From: Patescibacteria group bacterium
GTDB lineage: Bacteria > Patescibacteriota > Patescibacteriia > JACRDY01
Assembly (NCBI GenBank): GCA_041650515.1
Contig: JBAZLA010000001.1
Coordinates: 146,710 to 210,709 of the forward strand
Reading direction: 5' to 3'
DNA length: 64,000 bases
The notes under the pieces are model-generated. The model worked only from the letters and a program-made list of their open reading frames with translations. It was not told the origin of the DNA and searched no databases. Below, piece by piece: positions 1,620-61,704 of the stretch; the first letter of the stretch is position 1, and every line of letters begins with the position of its first letter. The position numbers and the translations under genes are program-made.

Positions 1620-1745
1620 CTCAGGGCAGGCTTGCCACCCTACGGGTGGTCCCCCGTAGGGGGAAACCTGCGACCTCCGCGTCCCAAACGCGGCGCGCTA
1701 GCCCCGCCCAAAGGGCGGTCGCCCTCTGGGCGAAACTGTACGCCA
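1620..1745 (-). repeat. Degenerate tRNA-Pro-like copy with double-hairpin insertion in T-loop
   Basis: The reverse complement shares the tRNA-Pro anticodon arm (GCTAGCGCGCCGCGTTTGGGACGCGGAGGTCGCAGGTT). A 30-nt segment TCCCCCTACGGGGGACCACCCGTAGGGTGG then replaces the T-loop. The 5' part reads GCGTACAGTT[TCGCCCAGAGGGCGACCGCCCTTTGGGCGGG]GCTAGCGCG, with an insertion in the D-loop. Confidence 0.6.
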
Positions 1746-2936: not shown

Positions 2937-4586
<1,650 letters not shown>

Positions 4587-5157
4587 TTAAATACTGATAA
4601 GTTGTCCGTACACTAACAACACCAGTTGCTAATGTTTACCCCGTAGAGTCTACGGGTTTAACTCTCTCAGTAGAGTTATAAGAGAAAATAAAGTTGAATA
4701 GATAGGTTACTTCGCACTTACGATTTACTATCACTTTTCGATTGTCAATGTTCCTTTTCTCACCTCTTAATTTTTTATCAAATTAAGAGACGAAAAAACA
4801 GTGCGGGCCAAATCAACGACTTCCACTGGGGAATGTCTACTCAGCCATCACTGTTTTTCCGTCTACTTTTCCCCTGTCAGGGGAAAGTTTAGATGAATTG
4901 TAATAATGTTTTTATGGAACTTTTTATGCCTTGCCTCGCCGGTGCCCTAAAAGGGCATAGGCGGGTTATTTTTAAAGCCCTCTCATTATATACCTTTGCT
5001 AGACCCTGTCAAGGGTGAGACAACAAGCCAATAATGCACAAATTATACCCAGTCAATTTATAACCTAAATAGTAAAATAACCATTGTCCAAACCCTTGAC
5101 TAAATTGATTGTCCGTGTTACAGTTACTAATCCATTTCTCACACCAAGGAGGGCACT

Positions 5158-5510: not shown

Positions 5511-5541
5511 TCACTAATTATTATAACAACATAAACCTAAT

Positions 5542-5697
5542 GGGGGTTTGGGGCGAATACGGCGCGAAGCCGAGCTCCGACCTTTTTTGATTACGCCGAG
5601 GAGCGAGGCGGGTAGAACGAGCTGGGGATGAACAACGAATCGCGCCTGATGAGCCCCAAAGCTTTTTTGGTTACTTTTTTGGCTACAAAAAAGTAAC
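5542..5697 (+). repeat. Structured intergenic repeat family, copy 1 (GGGGTTTGGGG...CCCCAAAGC TTTTTT + GTTACTTTTTTGGNTACAAAAAAGTAAC hairpin)
   Basis: It shares a conserved core with the copies at 13634, 23507, 26186, 51869 and 60850. The core is GGGGTTTGGGGCG-AATACGGCGCGAAGCCGAG...GAGCGAGGCGGGTAGAAC...AACAATGAATCGCGCC...GCCCCAAA. Confidence 0.75.
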
Positions 5698-5722
5698 CTA
5701 CCTGCTAATAAAATAATACCTG

Positions 5723-6999: not shown

Positions 7000-7154
7000 A
7001 CGCTATAGTACTTAATACATAGTACACAGTACAGAGTAAATTGACCAGCCAGCAACATTTGGCTGATGTACTCTGTACTCAGTACTGTGTACTATTATAA
7101 AACAAAAACCGTCGGTTTGTCACCAACGGTCTTCGTTTTATTCAATGAACAATT

Positions 7155-8999: not shown

Positions 9000-11273
9000 T
9001 TACTTGGCGTACTGCTGCCCTTCTTCCAGTTTAATCGACAGCATTTTGGAAACACTATCATCACCCATGGTCACGCCATAAAGCACATCGCCCTTGGCCA
9101 TGGTGGTTCGATTATGAGTCACAATAATAAATTGAGTTTTGTGCGCCAGGGTTTCAACAATATTAGACAATCGTTCTGAATTGGCTTCATCCAGCGCCGC
9201 ATCCACCTCATCAAGAACAACAAAGGGGGAGGGATTGCAAGCAATAATGGCGCAGATCAAAGCAATCGCCGTCATCGCTCGCTCGCCGCCTGACAAAGTG
9301 TTGAGACTAGAAATCCTTTTGCCTGGGGGACAAGCCTTAATCTCCACCCCGCCATATTCTAATTCCTTGCTACCGTCGCCGATTCTAGCTTTTCCGCCTC
9401 CGGCGGACCCGCCGTAGGCGGGCTTGTTGACCACCTTACCACTCTCATCCAGCTCTTCTTCATCATCTTCGATCTCGATCATAATTTTTTCCAAACTCGC
9501 CTTACCGCCACCAAACAACACTTGAAAATATTCACCAAACTTAGCATTAATATTTTGAAAAGTCTCATCAAAACGCTTATGGATCTCTTCATCCAACTCG
9601 CGAATAATCTGTCGCAGACTTTCGATGGCCTGAGTTAAATCTTGATACTGCTCATTTAAAAATTCATAACGAACCTTAATCTCTTCATATTCTCTAATCG
9701 ACTCATCATCTAGACCACCGATTAACTCGAGCTGCCGTTTGAGCTTTTGAATTTTGTCATAAGCCTCAGCCATCCCGCTCTCGCCGATCGCCGGCTGCTG
9801 ACTGCTGGTTGGCAATTCAACATCTCCCATCTCTCGTTTAATCTCCCGTTCCAAATCTTCTTTTCGTGTCTCTAGTTTGGCTAGCTCAATCTTGATATCA
9901 TTAACCTTGATTGACAGATTATTAAGCTCGCTTTGCTGACCAGCAAACTGACGTTGCAGATCAAAAAATTCACCTTTTTTCTCTTGCTGTGTTAGGTTAA
10001 AATCAGCAATCGCCCGTTGGCTAGTCACTAATTCTTTAGCCACCAAACCCAAAGCCTCTTGGGTTATTTTTAGTTCCGCTTCTAATTCTTGATCAATTTT
10101 GATCTCCTCATCGGCTGGTTTCCTCACCTTACCCAACAAATCCTTAAGCCGGCCCTTGACATGATGAATTTGGTCTTTGACCTGGCCTAAGTGAACCAAT
10201 TCTTTAATCTGATCAACGTGGCTGATCAACGCTTCGTGGAGACTAATCAACTCTTCAATATACTGAGCCATCTCTTCAGCACCCAGGGGAATAAAATCCT
10301 GCTGGGCCTGCTCTTTGGCTAATTGAATTTTACTCTGCAAGATGAGCTGCCGTGACTGGAGCTGATTTTTCTTATCCAAAATCTGATTAAACTGCTGCTG
10401 TAATTTTTCAAATGCTTCCTGACCCGAATCTTCCTGCTCTAGTTGATTAAGCTTTTGTTGGATTGATCCCAAATTCTCGTGCTTAGCCAGTCGACCATCT
10501 TCAATAGCTTTAAACTCGCTCTGATATTTTTGCCAGTGTTCATTAATATCAAAATACAACTGACCATAATACTGTTGCTGGATACCGCGCAATTCCGTCT
10601 CAATCTCGCCACGCTGTTCAAGCCGCTTGACCAATCGACCGAGTGAACGATAACGCGGCCCTAATTCCTGCAAAGTCACGTCGGTTGTTTTAAGATTTTC
10701 CTCAGTCCGCAAAAGTTTATTCAGGGTCTGGTCCCGCTTGATTTGGTATTCTTTAACCCCAGCTGCCTCATCAAAAAACTCTTTACGCTCAGACTGGGTA
10801 GCCACCAAAAAATGATCCACCATGCCTTGGCCAATAACACTATAAGTCCGCTGACCAAAATTGGCCTTGGCCAATAGAATCAAAATATCCCCCAAGCGCA
10901 CCCGACTCTTATTCAATAAATATTCGCTTTCGCCGTCACGATAAAGCCGGCGGGTAATTACCAACTCAGAATAATCAATCTGAGCTTGGCCATCCTCATT
11001 ATTTAAATACAAAGAAACTTCGGCCATACCCACCCGGGATTTTTTATCCGAACCAAAAAAGATGACGTCTTCGCTCTTTTTACCCCGCAACGTCTTCATC
11101 GACTGTTCACCTAACACCCAGCGGATAGCGTCAGCAATGTTGGATTTACCGCTGCCATTAGGACCAACTACCGCTGTGATGCCTTTACCTTTACCATTAG
11201 CCGAGGGGAATTCTAAAATCGTCCGATTGGCGAACGACTTAAACCCTTGGATCTCGAGTTTTTGTAAATACAT
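9000..11273 (-). CDS. smc: SMC-family chromosome segregation ATPase, unusually short (757 aa)
   Basis: The N-terminal head carries GPNGSGKSN, the Walker A motif. A coiled-coil middle follows. The C-terminal head carries LSGGERAMTAIALICAI...VLDEVDAALD...QFIIVTHNRTTMAKGDVLYGVTM. Confidence 0.7.
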   Translation of the reverse strand: MYLQKLEIQGFKSFANRTILEFPSANGKGKGITAVVGPNGSGKSNIADAIRWVLGEQSMKTLRGKKSEDVIFFGSDKKSRVGMAEVSLYLNNEDGQAQIDYSELVITRRLYRDGESEYLLNKSRVRLGDILILLAKANFGQRTYSVIGQGMVDHFLVATQSERKEFFDEAAGVKEYQIKRDQTLNKLLRTEENLKTTDVTLQELGPRYRSLGRLVKRLEQRGEIETELRGIQQQYYGQLYFDINEHWQKYQSEFKAIEDGRLAKHENLGSIQQKLNQLEQEDSGQEAFEKLQQQFNQILDKKNQLQSRQLILQSKIQLAKEQAQQDFIPLGAEEMAQYIEELISLHEALISHVDQIKELVHLGQVKDQIHHVKGRLKDLLGKVRKPADEEIKIDQELEAELKITQEALGLVAKELVTSQRAIADFNLTQQEKKGEFFDLQRQFAGQQSELNNLSIKVNDIKIELAKLETRKEDLEREIKREMGDVELPTSSQQPAIGESGMAEAYDKIQKLKRQLELIGGLDDESIREYEEIKVRYEFLNEQYQDLTQAIESLRQIIRELDEEIHKRFDETFQNINAKFGEYFQVLFGGGKASLEKIMIEIEDDEEELDESGKVVNKPAYGGSAGGGKARIGDGSKELEYGGVEIKACPPGKRISSLNTLSGGERAMTAIALICAIIACNPSPFVVLDEVDAALDEANSERLSNIVETLAHKTQFIIVTHNRTTMAKGDVLYGVTMGDDSVSKMLSIKLEEGQQYAK

Positions 11274-13485: not shown

Positions 13486-13633
13486 ATATAAATAATCAAT
13501 TTAAGGTAAAAATATTTTACCACACTCAATCAAGTGTAACAAGCAATTAATCACCGGCGGCTTCTATTCTAAAACTATACTCTTTCCGATTTTTAGTTTT
13601 AATTTTAAAACCATAAAGATATTAATCCAGTAG

Positions 13634-13789
13634 GGGTTTGGGGCGAATATGGCGCGGAGCCGAAGTCCCCATCTGGTCGATACTGACCAGGGGACGAGGC
13701 GATTAAAACTAATTTCAAACTAAACAATGAATCGCGCCTTATAAGCCCCAAAACTTTTTTGGTTACTTTTTTGGTTGCAAAAAAGTAAC
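13634..13789 (+). repeat. Structured intergenic repeat family, copy 2 (with ~70-bp 5' preface from ~13560)
   Basis: It has the same GGGGTTTGGGGCGAATATGGCGCGGAGCCGAAG...CGCGCCTTATAAGCCCCAAAAC TTTTTTGGTTACTTTTTTGGTTGCAAAAAAGTAAC architecture. The internal hairpin GTCCCC...GGGGAC is compensatory relative to copy 5. Confidence 0.75.
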
Positions 13790-13830
13790 ATATTAAGACA
13801 ATTTTAGTAACAATAAAAACATCCCCCGAT

Positions 13831-23349: not shown

Positions 23350-23506
23350 AAGTTAGCTTTCTTTAATATTGATTATCTGACCCTATTATACCAAGCTAAA
23401 CAAAAATGAACTACCATCGACTCAGCGGCGACGGTTCCGTTCGACTGACTACGCCAGGGTAGTTTTATTATTATTATTTCAAAACGACCAAGATATCAAA
23501 CTGCCC

Positions 23507-23712
23507 GGGGTTTGGGGCAAATACGGCGCGAAGCCGAAGCTCCGACCTTTTCTGATTACGCCAAGGAGCGAGGCGGGTTAGTCCGTAGACAGCTAAACAA
23601 TGAATCGCGCCTTATGAGCCCCAAAACTTTTTTGGTCCGCCTAGACTCGCTAGGCGAGGCTGGTTACTTTTTTGCCCGCCTTGCCGGCGAGGCAGGGTTA
23701 CAAAAAAGTAAC
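23507..23712 (+). repeat. Structured intergenic repeat family, copy 3 (preface from ~23440; extra hairpin inserted in terminal loop)
   Basis: It reads GGGGTTTGGGGCAAATACGGCGCGAAGCCGAAGCTCCGACC...GAGCGAGGCGGGTTAGTCCG...AATGAATCGCGCCTTATGAGCCCCAAAAC TTTTTTGG...GTTACAAAAAAGTAAC. Confidence 0.75.
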
Positions 23713-26081: not shown

Positions 26082-26185
26082 AATAAACCGCCGCTCCAAT
26101 AATTATCGGAGCGGTTTTGTTTTACTGACTTCGCCAGCCTAGTTCCTTATTCTTATTTCAAAACGATAAAGATATTAAACTAATA

Positions 26186-26343
26186 GGGGTTTGGGGTCGG
26201 CAAGGGGCCGAGCCGAGTCTCCGACCTTTTCTGACTACACCAAGGAGCGAGGCGGGTAGAACCGTAAATAGATAAACAGTACTTTGCCCCTTGCCGACCC
26301 CAAAACTTTTTTATATTACTTTTTTGGTTACAAAAAAGTAATA
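26186..26343 (+). repeat. Structured intergenic repeat family, copy 4 (preface from ~26122)
   Basis: It reads GGGGTTTGGGGTCGGCAAGGGGCCGAGCCGAG...TACTTTGCCCCTTGCCGACCCCAAAAC TTTTTTATATTACTTTTTTGGTTACAAAAAAGTAAT. The closing helix GGGGTCGGCAAGGGGC/GCCCCTTGCCGACCCC is perfectly complementary and differs from copy 1 by compensatory changes. Confidence 0.75.
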
Positions 26344-26473
26344 TACCAACCAAAGTAAATACCCCTAGGACTGCTCCAATCCGATTTTACGTCGGACCTC
26401 GCAATGACGTGAACAAAAATTTGGCGGTTCGGCCTAAAACCTCTATAATTAGGTTATAATCTAGCAATAAAAT

Positions 26474-40789: not shown

Positions 40790-40865
40790 TCTCAAACCAA
40801 AAACACCTCCCTCATCAGAAGGAGATGTCTTTTCCTTTGTCTTCGAGCTTATGCTTAGAGACAAA
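40790..40865 (+). repeat. 75-bp direct repeat, copy B, abutting tRNA-His
   Basis: See copy A. Confidence 0.7.
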
Positions 40866-40938
40866 GGTGACCGACGGGAATCGAACCCGTATAGCTGGTG
40901 CCACAGACCAGTGCACTAACCATTGTGCTACGGTCACC
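40866..40938 (-). tRNA. tRNA-His (anticodon GTG) with encoded G-1
   Basis: The reverse complement is G-GTGACCGTAGCACAATGGTTAGTGCACTGGTCTGTGGCACCAGCTATACGGGTTCGATTCCCGTCGGTCACC. The extra 5' G pairs with the discriminator C, which is the His identity element. The anticodon loop is CTGTGGC. Confidence 0.8.
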
Positions 40939-40984
40939 ATACATTAATTATTAATTACTAATTAATAATTGGTAACTGTTGTAA

Positions 40985-41264
40985 TCGCCCTCAGTAGGAA
41001 TCCCACCCCTACGGGTGGTGGCCCGTTAGGGCCAGAACCTACAAGAGAACAGTTGCTCTACTACTGGTTTCCAATATTCGCCCTCAGTAGGAATCCCACC
41101 CCTACGGGTGGTGGCCCGTTAGGGCCAGAACCTACAAGAGAACAGTTGCTCTACTACTGGTTTCCAATATTCGCCCTCAGTAGGAATCCCACCCCTACGG
41201 GTGGTGGCCCGTTAGGGCCAGAACCTACAAGAGAACAGTTGCTCTACTACTGGTTTCCAATATT
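40985..41264. repeat. Three tandem 93-bp units, each ending (tRNA orientation) in the 17-nt tRNA-Arg 3' terminus and containing a tRNA-3'-half-like segment with 32-nt double-hairpin insertion
   Basis: The units begin at 40985, 41079 and 41172 and are essentially identical. The next copy at 41265 is the genuine tRNA-Arg. The ORF-track 113-aa frame 40969..41310 is a repeat artefact. Confidence 0.8.
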
Positions 41265-41336
41265 CGCCCTCAGTAGGAATCGAACCTACATATCCAGCTT
41301 AGAAGGCTAGTGTTCTATCCATTGAACTATGAGGGC
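41265..41336 (-). tRNA. tRNA-Arg (anticodon TCT)
   Basis: The reverse complement GCCCTCATAGTTCAATGGATAGAACACTAGCCTTCTAAGCTGGATATGTAGGTTCGATTCCTACTGAGGGCG is a 72-nt cloverleaf. Confidence 0.8.
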
Positions 41337-41389
41337 TCAATTCGCACGAGTAAACCCAATTCTATCATATTTTTTTCAAAAATCAACCC

Positions 41390-42448
41390 CTAACTCTTTT
41401 TCCGCTGGCGACCATGAAAAGCCTTATAGACCTCACGCAAATGTTTATCGGTAATATGAGTATAAATTTGGGTTGTGGTGATGGAAGCATGGCCCAATAA
41501 CGACTGCACCGAACGGATATCAGCACCAGAAGTTAATAAATCAGTGGCAAAACTATGACGCAAAGTGTGCGGCGTAATCTTTTTGGTGATGCCGGCCAGC
41601 CGAGCGTACTTTTTGATCAATCGTTGCACTGACCGCGGCGTCAAAAAACTCACCTCCTCTACTCCTCTGGACTCTGGACTCGGGACTCGGGACTTATTTG
41701 CCCGATCATGACTAACAAAAATATAATCCGAACCATCCCGTCGAGTCGCCAAATAGCGTCGTAACCAAAATTTAGCTTGGTTAGAAATAAAAACCACTCG
41801 CGGTTTGTCACCCTTGCCCCGGACGGTAAATTCTTCTTTAGCTAGATTAATCTGATCTTTTTGAAGATGGACTAATTCTGAGACGCGCAGACCAGTCGAA
41901 AACAACATTTCTAATATGGCTTTGTCGCGGAGCGGAATAATATTGGCAATATAATCATTACCATCTTGATCAATCTCAACTTTATTAATCTGTAACGGCG
42001 CAGCTAAAAACCGTTCTAGATCGCTGCCTTCTAAATATTCAATGTGCCGTTCGGACTGCCTCGCTAGCTCAATTTTTTCTGGTGCCAAAGACCTAATATC
42101 GTTTTTGGCTAAATATTTAAGAAAAGAGCGCAAAGCAATCAGATGATAGTTCTGAGTGCTACTCTTGAGATTTTTACCATGATCATCAGTAGCTCGATTG
42201 AGCCAAAGCCGAAACTGACGGATCAGGCTCGAGTCGACATCTTCAATCTTAAAACTTTTGTTTTTACTTTTAGCCCAATTAAAAAACCGCTGTAAATAAA
42301 AATCATAATTACGAATCGTAGCTTGCGCTCGACCACGTTCGATCTCGAGATATTCGAGAAAATTAGTGACTAGGGGATTAGCTGACATAATTAAGAAAGC
42401 AAAAAAGCATACGGCCTCTCCGCCGAATCGGCGGATTGGCCTAAGCAA
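41390..42448 (-). CDS. Tyrosine site-specific recombinase/integrase (XerC/D-like)
   Basis: 352 aa with an N-terminal SAM-like domain. The catalytic C-terminus reads HTLRHSFATDLLTSGADIRSVQSLLGHASITTTQIYTHI (R...HxxR...Y). It is adjacent to tRNA-Arg. Confidence 0.8.
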   Translation of the reverse strand: MLRPIRRFGGEAVCFFAFLIMSANPLVTNFLEYLEIERGRAQATIRNYDFYLQRFFNWAKSKNKSFKIEDVDSSLIRQFRLWLNRATDDHGKNLKSSTQNYHLIALRSFLKYLAKNDIRSLAPEKIELARQSERHIEYLEGSDLERFLAAPLQINKVEIDQDGNDYIANIIPLRDKAILEMLFSTGLRVSELVHLQKDQINLAKEEFTVRGKGDKPRVVFISNQAKFWLRRYLATRRDGSDYIFVSHDRANKSRVPSPESRGVEEVSFLTPRSVQRLIKKYARLAGITKKITPHTLRHSFATDLLTSGADIRSVQSLLGHASITTTQIYTHITDKHLREVYKAFHGRQRKKS

Positions 42449-47615: not shown

Positions 47616-47702
47616 ATCTGTGTACTATGTACTAGGTACTAGGTACTAACATTATAAAAAAAGCCACCCGTAGGTGACTAGCTGCTGTAGGCAAGACTTT
47701 AC

Positions 47703-48113
47703 TCACGCCGCGGGCAGCTTGATCTCGGCTCGGACGATCATCTCCAGGATTTGCCGGCCGATCGCCTGGTCGCCCTCGATGACCACCCTCTGGGCAGCCA
47801 ACGACATCGCAACCTGCCTGGTCGCCACTTCCGCCTCGCGCAACGGCTGCTCACGGCAGAAGCTGAGGAAGGTGGCCACATCCAGCTTAATCATCGCCCA
47901 AGTGGCTTCTCCATCGGTTACCGCCGTGGGCACAACGGCCTGCAACACTCGGGGCATCGACCCGGTCAGGTCAATCTCCCACTGACGATCAGGCCAAAAC
48001 CGCATGGTAATGTAGCTCTGGGGCAACCCGTGATCACCCTGCTGAAGCAATTGCTTCAATTGTTCAAAAGCCATCCCAATCGCCGCATCAGCCCGATCTT
48101 TAGCATGTGACAT
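47703..48113 (-). CDS. SCP2-like lipid-binding domain protein, GC-rich
   Basis: Start is at MSHAKDRAD after the ribosome-binding site ggagga. The C-terminus reads VVIEGDQAIGRQILEMI, an SCP2-type signature. The terminator gccacccgtaggtgac plus T7 lies downstream on the minus strand. Confidence 0.45.
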   Translation of the reverse strand: MSHAKDRADAAIGMAFEQLKQLLQQGDHGLPQSYITMRFWPDRQWEIDLTGSMPRVLQAVVPTAVTDGEATWAMIKLDVATFLSFCREQPLREAEVATRQVAMSLAAQRVVIEGDQAIGRQILEMIVRAEIKLPAA

Positions 48114-48248
48114 TGGTCCTCCTGGTGGTACTACCCTAATGACATACAAAACAACTTTATCCTGCACAGTAACAAACCAACCTAACGAAGTCAAGATAAA
48201 AAAATAAAAAAATCCCCGAAGGGATTGTGCTGCCGGCGATGAGTAAAA

Positions 48249-50740: not shown

Positions 50741-50924
50741 AGTACATAGTACTCAGCACCCAGTACACAGAAAAATATTAATCTAATAGCCTAACTAGTT
50801 AATTTACTTCCTAAAGTACTGGGTACTAGGTACTGGGTACTAGTTAATAATTGACAAAACCAATAAATTTGAGATAATGGGACAAACATTATCGAGGAGG
50901 GCTTTTTATTTAGGAATAATTGCT

Positions 50925-51868: not shown

Positions 51869-52049
51869 GTTGGGGTCTGGGGCGGATGCGGCGCCGAGTC
51901 CCGCCCCGGCCTCTTTGGTCTTTCCTTAGGGGCGGGACGGGTAGAACGAACTAAAGTTCAACAATGAATCGCGCCTCATTATGTCTCTTGGCGCCAAGAG
52001 ACATAATCCCCAGGACTTTTTTGCTACTTTTTTAGTCATAAAAAAGTAG
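51869..52049 (+). repeat. Structured intergenic repeat family, copy 5 (divergent; hairpin GTCCCGCCCC/GGGGCGGGAC)
   Basis: It reads GGTTGGGGTCTGGGGCGGATGCGGCGCCGAG...GGGCGGGACGGGTAGAACG...AACAATGAATCGCGCC...GACTTTTTTGCTACTTTTTTAGTCATAAAAAAGTAG. Confidence 0.7.
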
Positions 52050-53680: not shown

Positions 53681-54043
53681 ATGAAGGAAAATATTATCCA
53701 ACAAAAAAGCTACGTCTTTGCCTTGAGGATTATTAAATTATATGGATTCTTAGTTGAAAAACAGAGAGAGTTTGTTCTATCAAAACAAATTTTAAGATGC
53801 GGCACGTCGGTTGAAGCTAATATTGAGGAAGCAATTGGCGGTCAATCTAAAAAAGATTTCATTTTTAAAGTATCTATTGCTTATAAAGAAGCCAGGGAAA
53901 CTCATTATTGGATCAGACTTTTATATGATTCCGGTTTTTTGATTAAAAAACAATTCGGGTCGTTAATAGCAGACTGCGAAGTGTTAACTAAAATCACTGG
54001 TCGAATCCAAAAAACGTCTAAAGCTAAAGATTTTAATTCTTAA
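53681..54043 (+). CDS. Four-helix-bundle protein ('23S rRNA intervening-sequence protein' family, PF05635-like)
   Basis: 120 aa. The pattern SYVFALRIIKLY...LRCGTSVEANIEEA...SKKDFIFKVSIAYKEARETHYWIRLL is typical of the family. It is flanked by inverted CGAATTAC-type repeats. Confidence 0.7.
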   Translation: MKENIIQQKSYVFALRIIKLYGFLVEKQREFVLSKQILRCGTSVEANIEEAIGGQSKKDFIFKVSIAYKEARETHYWIRLLYDSGFLIKKQFGSLIADCEVLTKITGRIQKTSKAKDFNS

Positions 54044-54064
54044 TTCGTAATCTGCAATTCGTAA

Positions 54065-55363
54065 TTATTTAATGTAGCTGAGGGGATTAACGGTTTTACC
54101 ATTAATCCGGACCTCGAAATGCAGATGGGTGCCAGTTGAGTGGCCAGTGGTACCCATCATACCAATTGTTTGACCGCGCGTGACAGTGTCACCTAATTTA
54201 ACAAAAAGCTTGCTCATATGAGCATATAAGGTAGACAAACCACCACCGTGGTCAATTGCCAAAACATTACCATATCCATTATTCCAACCACCCCAACCAT
54301 ATCGGCTAATAGTCCCAGATTCAGCAGCATAAATGGGTGACGAATAATCACCATCAATATCCAAACCGCCATGTTTCCAGCCAAAATATTGAGTAATACG
54401 ACGTCCAGAGGTCGGCCATTGCAACTGAGTCGAGCTAGGAGTAGCTGAGGCTGGAGCCGATCCAACATAACTCCTAACCACCGGCTTGGGCGTTGGCGCA
54501 TAAACCGGTAATTTTTTGCCGCCGGGAATAATTAGCTCTTGGCCAATACTCAATGAGCTATTAACATCAAGGTCATTAGCAATCATAACTTGAGCAACCT
54601 CAATACCATAGAGCTGAGCTATCTTATTAATATTCTCACCGCGAACGACTTTATGTTTAATGCCAGAAACCGGCAGGATCGTCAGTTTATCGCCCGGCCG
54701 AATATAGCTCCTTTCAGTTAGCTTATTCTCCCACAGAACCGTATTGACTGAGATACCAAACTTCTCGGCGATCGAACCAATTGTGTCGCCCTGTTGTACT
54801 GTATAAGTTTCGCTCGCTGCTCTAGCCGGACCAGCCGTCTCGTTACCCGGAGAAATTTCTGGTTTAATCAGCGCCGTGCCGCCTTGAGTGGTGGCGGTAA
54901 TATCCTGAATTTCACCCTGGTTAGAAAATTTAGGTGTATTGGACGTAACCCCAGATTCATAGCCCAAATAACTAGAAATGTTTGAACCGGCCGGAGAATT
55001 ATCAATACTTTCTTCAACCAAGCCTAGTTCCTGGCCGCCGACTAACTGATAAAGAATTGTTTTTTTACCAAACTCCTCGTCGCGAAAACCATGCCAGCGC
55101 GCTTGAAGATTATTAGTAACCACCAAAAGACCCAATATCAAAATAATGCCATGGATAACATACCGATTGGTAATAATATCCCAAAGTTTATTACCTGAAG
55201 GGATATAAATTTTAAGTAATTGCCTCTTAAAAAACAGATAACCCTTATAGATCGGCAAAATCCCGAAGCCAAAAAGAAAACCACCAACAGCCTTTAGTGG
55301 TCTTTTAATCTTTGGCCAAAACCGGCCACCAAGAAAACCTATTCCCGTCTTCATCTTTACCAA
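54065..55363 (-). CDS. M23-family peptidoglycan endopeptidase with two LysM domains
   Basis: 432 aa. The LysM domains begin YTVQQGDTIGSIAEKFGIS and HKVVRGENINKIAQLYGIE. The M23 domain carries HxxxD...HLHFE. Confidence 0.8.
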   Translation of the reverse strand: MVKMKTGIGFLGGRFWPKIKRPLKAVGGFLFGFGILPIYKGYLFFKRQLLKIYIPSGNKLWDIITNRYVIHGIILILGLLVVTNNLQARWHGFRDEEFGKKTILYQLVGGQELGLVEESIDNSPAGSNISSYLGYESGVTSNTPKFSNQGEIQDITATTQGGTALIKPEISPGNETAGPARAASETYTVQQGDTIGSIAEKFGISVNTVLWENKLTERSYIRPGDKLTILPVSGIKHKVVRGENINKIAQLYGIEVAQVMIANDLDVNSSLSIGQELIIPGGKKLPVYAPTPKPVVRSYVGSAPASATPSSTQLQWPTSGRRITQYFGWKHGGLDIDGDYSSPIYAAESGTISRYGWGGWNNGYGNVLAIDHGGGLSTLYAHMSKLFVKLGDTVTRGQTIGMMGTTGHSTGTHLHFEVRINGKTVNPLSYIK

Positions 55364-60849: not shown

Positions 60850-61004
60850 GGGGTTTGGGGGCGGCACGGGGCGGAGCCGAAGCTTCGACCTCTTCTGATT
60901 ACACCGAGGAGCGAGGCGGATTAATCCGTAAGTAGATAAACAATACTTTGCCCCTTGCCGCCCCCAAAACTTTTTTGCATTACTTTTTTGGTTACAAAAA
61001 AGTA
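60850..61004 (+). repeat. Structured intergenic repeat family, copy 6 (preface from ~60784)
   Basis: It reads GGGGTTTGGGGGCGGCACGGGGCGGAGCCGAAG...GAGCGAGGCGG...TTTGCCCCTTGCCGCCCCCAAAAC TTTTTTGCATTACTTTTTTGGTTACAAAAAAGTAG. Confidence 0.75.
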
Positions 61005-61169
61005 GATAATTACGTAGATGAGACAGAGCTCCCTTCGACTCGCTTCGCTCGCTCAGGGCGGGCCTTCGCGGAGTTTACCCTGAGTGAAACGAAGGGCTCA
61101 GAATAACAACAATAAGGTGGGCCTGCCCCTACTGTTTTAAAACCCCAAATTTTGTTAAAATAACGGCAT

Positions 61170-61673
61170 ATGTCTATCGCCATCATGTCTGATAGCCACG
61201 ACAATCTACCTAATATCAATGAAGCGCTTAAAATTATCAACCAAGCACAAATCCAAACCATTATCCATTGCGGTGATGTCTGTTCAGCCGAAGTAACCCG
61301 ATATATTAGCAAACATTTCACTGGCCAGATCCACCTAATTGCTGGTAATGTTGCTGGTGACCACGCCAAGAAAATTAAGCGCTATCGGTTAAAAAACGTC
61401 ACCTTCTATAATCAAACTGGCACTATAAAAATAGCTAACAAGACGATCGGATTTGCCCACCAGCCAGCTGAAGCTAAACAACTAGCGGCCACCGGCGGTT
61501 ATGATCTAGTCTTCTATGGCCATACCCACCGACCCTGGGAAGAAACCATTGGCCAAACACGTCTAGTCAACCCCGGCACCTTAGCTGGCCTTTTTGCTAG
61601 ACCAACCTTTGCCATTTATAACCCAACAACCAACCAACTTGAACTTAAAATTCTTTACACCAATAATTGTTAA
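61170..61673 (+). CDS. YfcE/MJ0936-family metallophosphoesterase
   Basis: 167 aa with the SDSHDN, GDVCS and GHTHRPW motifs. Confidence 0.7.
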   Translation: MSIAIMSDSHDNLPNINEALKIINQAQIQTIIHCGDVCSAEVTRYISKHFTGQIHLIAGNVAGDHAKKIKRYRLKNVTFYNQTGTIKIANKTIGFAHQPAEAKQLAATGGYDLVFYGHTHRPWEETIGQTRLVNPGTLAGLFARPTFAIYNPTTNQLELKILYTNNC

Positions 61674-61704
61674 TTCGTAATTCTTAACTCGTAATTATTG
61701 AACT

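Follow-up and report, generated by a model that had tools for sequence, protein, structure and literature searches.

A twin-hairpin insert in tandem tRNA-Arg relics of a Patescibacteria genome is probably a copy of a small dispersed insertion element

Introduction

Genomes of the Patescibacteria, or candidate phyla radiation (CPR), are tiny and are usually regarded as poor in mobile DNA. Here we describe a short tandem array in a 64,000-nucleotide stretch of contig JBAZLA010000001.1, which belongs to a Patescibacteria metagenome-assembled genome with a bacterial 16S rRNA gene (2937–4590). This whole stretch is called the window throughout, and positions refer to it unless a contig is named. 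The array is made of 93-bp units derived from a neighbouring tRNA-Arg gene, each interrupted in the T-loop by two abutting GC-rich hairpins; we ask what this twin-hairpin insert is, where else it occurs, and how the array may have arisen.

Results

The array occupies the spacer between a functional tRNA-Arg(TCT) gene and a tRNA-His(GTG) gene, all on the minus strand, behind a gene for a Xer-type recombinase. The features of the locus, from 5′ to 3′ on the minus strand, are as follows.

41390–42388, minus: housekeeping XerC/D-type recombinase, not an element integrase
41359–41386, minus: promoter-like site TTGATT-16-TAGAAT, TG-extended, upstream of tRNA-Arg
41265–41336, minus: functional tRNA-Arg(TCT) with an insert-free T-loop (GGTTCGATTCC), found by ARAGORN and by Rfam (RF00005, 72.5 bits)
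41172–41264, minus: repeat unit 1, 93 bp, made of a 35-nt body, Arg nt 47–55, the 32-nt double hairpin and Arg nt 56–72
41230–41264, minus: 35-nt 'spacer' of unit 1, TAGAGCAACTG..TTCT (further copies at 41137–41171 and 41044–41078)
41189–41220, minus: double hairpin of unit 1, between T-loop C56 and G57
41079–41171, minus: repeat unit 2, identical to unit 1
41096–41127, minus: double hairpin of unit 2
40986–41078, minus: repeat unit 3, identical; its 3′ end joins the ancestral tRNA-Arg trailer (ATTACAA...AT-rich spacer; compare relatives L007 and L005)
41003–41034, minus: double hairpin of unit 3
40939–40985, minus: AT-rich ancestral Arg–His spacer, with CAATTATTAATTAGTA common to L005 and a weak promoter-like site for tRNA-His
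40865–40938, minus: tRNA-His(GTG), the conserved downstream neighbour
40806–40822, minus: terminator-like hairpin and T-run 3′ of tRNA-His

Tandem Repeats Finder places the array at 40985–41281, with a period of 93 bp, 3.2 copies and 100% matches, and it contains three perfect units 3′ of the functional gene. The initial annotation of this DNA had described 93-bp units with the T-arm and acceptor 3′ strand of tRNA-Arg and a 32-nt double hairpin, which agrees exactly with the sequence; the span it gave, 40985–41264, holds for the array as a whole except for the first base, which lies one base outside the true start at 40986. On the minus strand, each unit consists of the 35-nt stretch, TGTAGGTTC (tRNA-Arg nt 47–55), the 32-nt double hairpin TGGCCC-TAAC-GGGCCA followed by CCACCC-GTAG-GGGTGG, and GATTCCTACTGAGGGCG (tRNA-Arg nt 56–72), with both tRNA segments 100% identical to the gene. 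The units lack tRNA nt 1–13 and have no proper acceptor 5′ strand. The 35-nt stretch (TAGAGCAACTG--TTCT) aligns to the D-stem, anticodon stem and TCT anticodon of a tRNA-Arg(TCT) on contig L151, with a local alignment p of ~0.0005 that is uncorrected for 9 comparisons. This is suggestive only, and the stretch is probably a decayed tRNA body, in which case the unit would be a 5′-truncated tRNA-Arg copy and not a bare 3′ half.

Nothing was detected in the units by ARAGORN, nor by Rfam even at E ≤ 1, both of which found only the intact Arg and His genes. Membership among functional tRNAs or tRNA-like RNAs was rejected, as the units have no cloverleaf with a paired acceptor stem. A 113-codon open reading frame (ORF; 40969–41310, plus strand) crosses the array and the antisense strand of tRNA-Arg; it is a by-product of stop-free GC-rich repeats and carries a risk of mis-annotation.

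A second, independent assembly of the same organism (L001) has two units between 100% identical flanks, and a third (L002) ends inside the repeat. The array is real, but whether it has two or three copies is uncertain, as the assembler used a k of 141, longer than the 93-bp unit. The short unit, the discordant unit numbers and the contig broken within the repeat would also fit a tandem array created artificially by short-read de Bruijn assembly. We find this hardly credible, since all three assemblies need at least one element-bearing copy downstream of the intact gene, and since the combination of an intact tRNA with a downstream element-bearing 3′ fragment recurs in unrelated contigs.

The gene order Xer, tRNA-Arg(TCT), tRNA-His(GTG) is kept in four relatives, with or without tRNA fragments, and the window Xer is 60–72% identical across Patescibacteria orthologues. 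The Arg–His spacer is 36 bp long in L005, 78 in L007, 134 in L009, 255 in L003 and 233–326 in the window population; it is unconserved, and the array is absent from L005 and L007. These varying lengths mark the array as a lineage-specific addition. Since the last unit joins the ATTACAA.../AT-rich spacer common to L007 and L005, and the intact gene joins the 35-nt stretch, it is the element-bearing copy that stands in the ancestral 3′ position.

The 3′ ends of tRNA genes are classic integration sites, and the gene of a tyrosine recombinase is found 54 bp upstream of tRNA-Arg; the tRNA 3′ pieces could on these grounds be att-site scars of an integrative element that used the adjacent recombinase to target tRNA-Arg. 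The conserved Xer–Arg–His synteny, which holds with or without fragments, led us to reject this idea, and we judge it highly improbable: the recombinase is a Xer orthologue at the identity given above and sits 5′ of the tRNA, the repeats enclose no island-like cargo and have a spacing of 93 bp, and the tRNA-Pro and tRNA-Phe fragments of the window have no recombinase nearby.

In relative L003, two tRNA-Arg fragments flank the intact gene, and both carry twin hairpins. The 5′ fragment has a D-loop insert, TCCGGC-GAA-GCCGGA followed by TCCTGC-TTC-GCAGGA, and the 3′ fragment has an insert after GGTT of the T-loop, TCCGGC-GTA-GCCGGA followed by CCCGGC-TTT-GCCGGG. The fragments have the acceptor type GCGCCCG, which is still functional in L005 and L009, and the intact gene of L003 has GCCCTCA; from their sequence, the fragments look like the displaced ancestral gene. 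In the relatives, tRNA-His too has a 3′ fragment after it (L009 4510–4600, L003 4660–4720, L007 4480–4610), with GC-rich hairpins in the T-loop after GGTT; the one in L009 is a longer nested hairpin of ~54 nt, TCCGCTCA[GCCGC-CAAAA-GCGGC]TGAGCGGA plus GCTCG-CGGAGA-CGAGC. Among the 80 labelled Patescibacteria loci that a genome-collection scan with the Xer protein yielded, there was no canonical double hairpin close to Xer, and the distribution of the element is therefore patchy.

A metagenome scan with an IUPAC pattern, generalised from the window and its relatives and blind to complementarity, matched at least 120 contigs. The counts given from here on for matches and copies are those among the matches listed. 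Both stems are perfectly complementary in 100 of 126 matches, a figure that rises to 104 of 107 for matches with 3-nt loops in hosts below 58% GC, and all six base pairs left free by the pattern show compensated two-sided changes. The 100 copies comprise 65 different 30-mers, whose stems are conserved and whose loops vary, and the 30-nt consensus is TCCGCC-nnA-GGCGGA followed by CC(A/C)GCC-Tnn-GGC(T/G)GG. The second hairpin of the Arg unit, CCACCC-GTAG-GGGTGG, is common to L171, L187 and window positions 1635–1649. Judged by its sequence, the Arg copy is a member of this family whose first stem is a variant and whose loops have 4 nt.

The host contigs are unrelated to the window in DNA, with the exception of rRNA and a few genes. 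For the host taxonomy of the metagenome copies, two lineages were named, and one host contig is a Magasanikbacteria relative. A canonical copy also lies in a gene leader on a predicted viral contig (L091 4942–4973; IMGVR_UViG_3300037067_011496) from a sample shared with relative L005, and this contig is a possible vehicle for spread between hosts; the exact Arg-unit hairpin has no match in viral contigs.

Within the window itself, the generalised motif has 6 matches at 4 sites, against none in 100 shuffles. The copies outside the array, together with an adjoining nuclease gene relic, are the following.

1635–1664, minus: family member in the T-loop (after GGTT) of a pseudo-tRNA-Pro, 29/30 identical to a copy in a tRNA-Cys fragment on the unrelated contig L187
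1704–1733, minus: family member in the D-loop (after AGTT) of the pseudo-tRNA-Pro
1777–2022, minus: GIY-YIG nuclease gene relic of 82 codons with an in-frame TAG at codon 21, between tRNA-Pro and the pseudo-tRNA-Pro (PF01541, E=2.7e-15)
2144–2173, minus: the same D-loop member in a tRNA-Pro 5′ fragment (nt 1–27; 2134–2190)
9393–9422, plus: canonical family member TCCGCC-TCC-GGCGGA followed by CCCGCC-GTA-GGCGGG, in frame in an SMC-like gene

The hairpins reported earlier in the tRNA-Pro copies are present, although not distributed as D-loop and T-loop 'respectively': 1620–1745 carries both, and 2134–2190 carries the D-loop one. A 45-bp direct repeat (1694–1738 = 2134–2178), comprising the D-loop region and the element, brackets tRNA-Pro and the GIY-YIG relic. 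The canonical copy in the SMC-like gene, which had been overlooked, encodes PAYGGSAGGG in a hypervariable linker. The region around 47668, previously proposed as a further site of the module, has a single imperfect hairpin and a T-run on the minus strand and is the intrinsic terminator of ORF 47703–48194.

Comparison of filled with empty paralogous tRNA sites gives exact boundaries (^ marks the insertion point): GGTT^CGATTCC in L170, and AGTT^GGCTAG and GGTTC^GATTCC in the window. The initial annotation had suggested looking for target-site duplications around the insert; this check was run and found none, with flank identity in at most 2 of 100 copies at k=2–5. In the part of the flank that the pattern does not force, T stands at −3 in 75% of copies and is rare at +1, while 71% have A at +2, and the pattern-independent sites in the window and L003 all follow GTT, TTT, GCT or GTTC.

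Copies in tRNA-derived contexts number at least 11 by BLAST and 4 more by eye, and all of them lie in loops: the D-loop (AGTT^GG), the T-loop (GGTT^CGA) and the anticodon loop, the last in tRNA-Leu(TAA) and tRNA-Ser(TGA) on the antisense strand after TTTT^. The layout recurs: an intact tRNA adjoins a partial copy of itself, and the element is found only in the partial copy. The partial copies are 3′ fragments downstream of the intact tRNA in L170, L151, L140, L187 and the window Arg locus, and 5′ fragments upstream of it in L092, L108, L210, L003, L007 and the window Pro locus. In L170, the intact tRNA-Pro stands between nt 1–24 and nt 34–53, element and 54–71 of a second, identical copy. When the element is removed in silico, a tRNA becomes detectable in only 1 of 102 cases, one that adjoins an intact twin; the intron-like reading, of interrupted but otherwise complete tRNA genes, was rejected on this count. 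Three tandem tRNA-Leu(TAA) copies lie at L118 2330–2820, one intact, one complete with the element between nt 34 and 35, and one partial with the element at the same site, an anticodon-loop position that is also used by group I introns in tRNA-Leu(UAA).

Most copies of the element lie in protein genes. Among 102 copies, 69 are in ORFs of at least 150 codons and in frame with them, the remainder including intergenic DNA and the one viral contig. The frames are biased, with 35 copies in F0 (S-A-x-G-G-P-A-x-G-W) and 13 in R0, on the opposite strand (P-A-x-G-G-S-A-x-G-G). From this bias and the intact ORFs, the inserts appear to be translated as ten mostly small, flexible residues. The host proteins include DNA polymerase I (PolA, twice), GyrA, GyrB, RecG, a UvrD-type helicase, arginyl-tRNA synthetase (ArgRS) and a DnaJ-like protein. 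RecG offers the clearest view of an insertion: P0251, an orthologue 82% identical to P0246, is shorter than it by exactly the 10 residues of the insert, and the insert interrupts a conserved helicase motif (HGKL-[PARGGSALGG]-K...VSTSVIEVGV). The more distant orthologues P0265, P0286 and P0311 have an insert at the same site, and P0255 has one at another site. By alignment, RecG thus presents a presence/absence polymorphism of a precise insert. The DnaJ-like ORF of L156 contains three copies in its Gly/Phe-rich region (residues ~64–130) and the ArgRS of L131 contains two, which suggests that there are local hot spots or that tolerant segments were hit repeatedly.

These data bear on the earlier proposal that a double-hairpin module occupies tRNA loops and could be a loop-targeting mobile element. 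All tRNA insertions are indeed in D-, anticodon or T-loops, and dispersal, presence/absence polymorphism and precise boundaries support mobility; the module is not specific to tRNA, however, as about two-thirds of the 102 copies are in protein ORFs, and within tRNA sequence it is found only in redundant partial copies and never in a working gene.

A second earlier proposal was that of an RNA-level module or processed tRNA-like decoy. With no terminator between the promoter-like site before tRNA-Arg and tRNA-His, and one after tRNA-His, the array is probably transcribed, as trailer and spacer of a tRNA-Arg/tRNA-His precursor, and then discarded. This location would also suit functional RNAs, such as tRNA-like minihelices, decoys or processing signals, cut from the precursor, with the double hairpin as a T-loop module. 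In keeping with such a role, the RNA of one unit folds at −41.1 kcal/mol (z=−3.3), retaining the T-stem and a G.U-rich acceptor-like helix, and the stems co-vary; covariation is, however, equally expected of a DNA hairpin recognised by an enzyme. The element is also read in frame within housekeeping proteins and is found in either orientation in mRNAs, the spacer is unconserved and lacks the array in L005 and L007, and the units match no Rfam family or tRNA model and have no acceptor 5′ strand. The decoy proposal did not hold up, and we regard an RNA function for the units as very unlikely.

In L092, L108, L210 and L121, 5′ fragments with the element have a small GIY-YIG gene (~80 aa, PF01541) tens of bases away at most, and neighbouring ORFs carry the GIY-YIG catalytic domain (PF01541 E=2.7e-15, 1.2e-9 and 1e-11). 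SegB, a GIY-YIG homing endonuclease, cuts tRNA genes at RAWTSGAAC, and its cutting leads to recombination-dependent tandem amplification of tRNA-containing segments (PMC13096335). The motif RAWTSGAAC is the reverse complement of the T-loop sequence GTTCSAWTY. SegB-like cutting is a plausible origin of the partial tRNA duplications and of the array.

Discussion

In the reading that we think likely, the insert is a mini-insertion element, selfish and non-autonomous, and the units, which have no function of their own, are amplified dead relics of tRNA-Arg. The Arg insert would be a slightly divergent copy of a 30-nt GC-rich twin-hairpin element dispersed in Patescibacteria. The element would insert precisely 3′ of TT (GTT^ or TTT^; at the Arg locus GTTC^), without target duplication, and would persist where it is tolerated, namely in protein genes as ten residues, in intergenic DNA and in the loops of superfluous tRNA copies. 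The Arg pieces would be 5′-truncated remains of another copy of tRNA-Arg, located at the ancestral 3′ end, the T-loop of the working gene being uninterrupted, and this relic, through direct repeats of 17–58 bp shared with the gene, may have given rise to the two or three identical 93-bp units by unequal recombination or slippage. The element may be mobilised in trans by a hairpin-recognising enzyme that acts on single strands, following a logic like that of IS200/IS605 or of repetitive extragenic palindromic (REP) sequences and their REP-associated tyrosine transposases (RAYTs). Such an enzyme fits the precise insertion 3′ of TT without duplication, the two conserved hairpins with variable loops, and the positions in tRNA loops; tRNA genes can extrude as single-stranded cloverleaves. 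The partial tRNA duplications may have begun at breaks that the small GIY-YIG nucleases introduced into tRNA genes.

Several observations weigh against this interpretation. The Pfam scan, which covered 40 of the 57 window ORFs, found no transposase, Y1/HUH types included. There is no GIY-YIG gene at the tRNA-Arg array, and the GIY-YIG proteins found elsewhere are catalytic-domain-only at ~80 aa, with only sub-threshold matches to a group I intron endonuclease and to PHROG homing endonucleases. The target preference and the breadth of the family are partly built into the scan pattern, which was derived from this window and forces TT upstream and C/G-only stem positions. The counts are those of a sample. 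The Arg copy is atypical, at 32 nt with 4-nt loops; the SMC copy lies in a hypervariable linker, where an insertion is not provable by alignment; and the orientation of the copies relative to GC skew, 43:29 (p=0.12), is a weak bias. Finally, almost all the tRNA fragments seen contain a hairpin insert. Neutral hits that struck independently would predict less regularity, and the pattern hints at some mechanistic link between fragment and insert.

Such a link would be provided by the main rival explanation, in which the hairpin pair is copied, templated from other copies, as a repair patch into GIY-YIG nuclease breaks in tRNA genes and elsewhere. A single event would then produce both the insert and the partial tRNA duplication, and through the insert the spent copy would lose the nuclease target, T-loop GTTCGAWT. 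This would account for the insert in nearly every fragment: fragment and insert co-occur in the window, L003, L007, L009, L170, L140, L151 and L187. It would likewise suit the GIY-YIG ORFs within tens of bases of element-bearing 5′ fragments, the 37-nt stretch of GGTT, element and CAA that is 97% identical between L187 and the window, and the coincidence of the SegB cleavage motif with T-loop sequence, together with the tandem amplification that SegB causes (PMC13096335). Against these points, the majority of copies are in protein genes that have neither a tRNA nor a GIY-YIG gene near them, the nuclease gene is absent at the Arg array, the nucleases have no DNA-binding domain, and the intact tRNAs adjoining the fragments keep the putative target. 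On balance, we consider the repair patch unlikely.

A broader variant would make one undescribed CPR system of tRNA-gene turnover out of the hairpin insert, the incomplete copies of tRNAs and the small GIY-YIG nucleases. Here, a nuclease-driven cassette would invade a tRNA gene and bring or regenerate an intact replacement; a twin hairpin placed at the loop target of the nuclease (T-loop GTTCGAWT, D-loop or anticodon loop) would keep the spent copy from being cut again, and the thousands of in-frame copies in protein genes would be spill-over of the same insertion activity. We hold this to be decidedly doubtful.

Among known systems, the closest functional analogues of the element that we favour are the Rickettsia palindromic elements (RPEs), selfish palindromic repeats that lie in frame in housekeeping genes and are translated, and that also occur in non-coding DNA (PMC10969869). 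Both are palindromic inserts that preserve the ORFs of unrelated housekeeping genes in a reduced genome. RPEs are ~100–150 bp long, form ten sequence families and are confined to Rickettsia, whereas the present element, at 30–32 nt, is five times shorter and occurs in Patescibacteria; by description it is further set apart as two abutting 6-bp hairpins that are also found in the loops of tRNA genes. The closest functional kind is thus already known, and the element itself is apparently undescribed. We looked in a library of 8 million papers for the peptide, for the DNA motif and for CPR together with palindrome or repeat topics, and found no description of it, which is absence of evidence only.

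REP sequences and bacterial interspersed mosaic elements (BIMEs), together with the ends of IS200/IS605, resemble the element in being short GC-rich hairpins, in its case apparently 3′ of a short sequence, with compensated stems, no target duplication and a non-autonomous nature. REP/BIME sequences, which are mobilised by RAYTs, are extragenic with a conserved 5′ GTAG, and IS200/IS605 ends are longer and have guide sequences. The present element, in contrast, is mostly intragenic, has T as its 5′ base and lacks the GTAG, and no Y1 transposase was found in 40 of the 57 window ORFs; on these points it was not assigned to REP/BIME, although it is a short palindrome. [quoted passage not shown]

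The double-hairpin elements and GC clusters of fungal mitochondria (Allomyces, yeasts) share with the element two adjacent GC-rich hairpins and an AT-rich small genome. They are considered mobile from presence/absence patterns; we know of no report of them as 30-nt in-frame inserts in many essential proteins or in tRNA relics. They differ in being mitochondrial and have no known sequence relation to the CPR element. Double-hairpin elements of this kind are mentioned in PMC7218506.

SegB, at the tRNA clusters of T-even phages, offers a parallel in a GIY-YIG gene among tRNA genes, a T-loop motif that is cut, and tandem amplification (PMC13096335). It is, however, a phage protein with a DNA-binding domain and amplifies whole functional tRNAs under selection, whereas the CPR nucleases are catalytic-domain-only, chromosomal and sometimes decayed, and the amplified Arg unit is a dead fragment.

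Archaeal tRNA genes are also known to contain additional sequence in the T-loop or D-loop, in the form of non-canonical introns, and in split tRNAs the halves are encoded separately. Here the host is bacterial by its 16S gene, the partial copies stand without their other half beside an intact gene, and the insert is also found in protein genes. An archaeal-type intron or split tRNA was rejected, since the insert forms two self-contained hairpins with, by inspection, no bulge-helix-bulge across the junctions, and the units have no 5′ exon.

If the reading as a mini-insertion element is correct, a 30-nt element has apparently colonised the most essential of CPR genes (polymerase, gyrase, helicases, an aminoacyl-tRNA synthetase, a chaperone) as well as tRNA loci, in effect a replicated experiment of nature on the sites at which proteins accept ten extra residues. 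It would explain tRNA 'pseudogenes', spurious ORFs such as 40969–41310 and contig breaks at tRNA loci in CPR genomes, and could serve as a marker for recent insertion events within lineages. The element and the GIY-YIG genes beside fragmented tRNAs point to an active turnover of single-copy tRNA genes in organisms unable to lose them.

Further features of the window

The 16S gene (2937–4590, minus) measures 1654 nt against a 1533-position model, the ~120 extra nt being common in CPR; it is followed by tRNA-Ile, tRNA-Phe and tRNA-Pro, and there is no 23S gene within the window. A 3′ fragment of tRNA-Phe (2253–2300, minus) contains a different T-loop insert of 25 nt, CTGTCATCCTGAGCGAAGCGAAGGG, which can form a hairpin with tandem G.A mismatches and is resembled by the motif GTCATCCCGAGCGGAGAGAGGGATCT in the Arg–His spacer of L003 (4393–4420); this insert type may represent a second small repeat family. 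The intact tRNA-Phe (2380–2540, minus) has a 19-bp complementarity between leader and trailer (TCCCTTTACAAATGCCGAG / CTCGGCATTTGTAAAGGGA), kept in the outer partial copy in 19 of 20 pairs with two G.U, and a 49-bp tandem duplication (2442–2540) comprises the leader and tRNA-Phe nt 1–24. The flanks of the L170 tRNA-Pro (1250–1375) have a similar 13-bp inverted repeat. The flanking complementarity at both genes may be a precursor processing stem or mark the ends of a mobile tRNA cassette.

Six copies of an element of ~150–170 nt lie on the plus strand (~5540–5700, 13630–13792, 23505–23665, 26185–26345, 51870–52040 and 60850–61009), mostly upstream of plus-strand genes (extracytoplasmic function sigma factor, major facilitator superfamily protein, metallophosphoesterase). 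Their layout is GGGGTTTGGGGCGAATACGGCGCG...CCAAGGAGCGAGGCGGGTAGAAC...CGCGCCTTAT.AGCCCC with a T-run and an AT hairpin, and a long outer helix co-varies between copies (GGGGCGAATACGGCGCG/CGCGCC..GCCCC against GGGGTCGGCAAGGGGC/GCCCCTTGCCGACCCC). Rfam gave no match at E ≤ 1, and the element looks like an undescribed structured RNA or leader family.

The '23S rRNA-intervening sequence protein' family is represented by a gene at 53681–54043 (plus; PF05635, E=2.3e-26). Short AT-rich repeats of the TAATT type occur after this gene (54034–54072), at 61664–61702 and near the tRNA-His spacer (40945–40983), and runs of GTACTnnGTACT-type heptamer repeats are found in intergenic and intragenic positions at 7068–7094, 47622–47648 and 50816–50842, and as GGACTC at 41669–41695.

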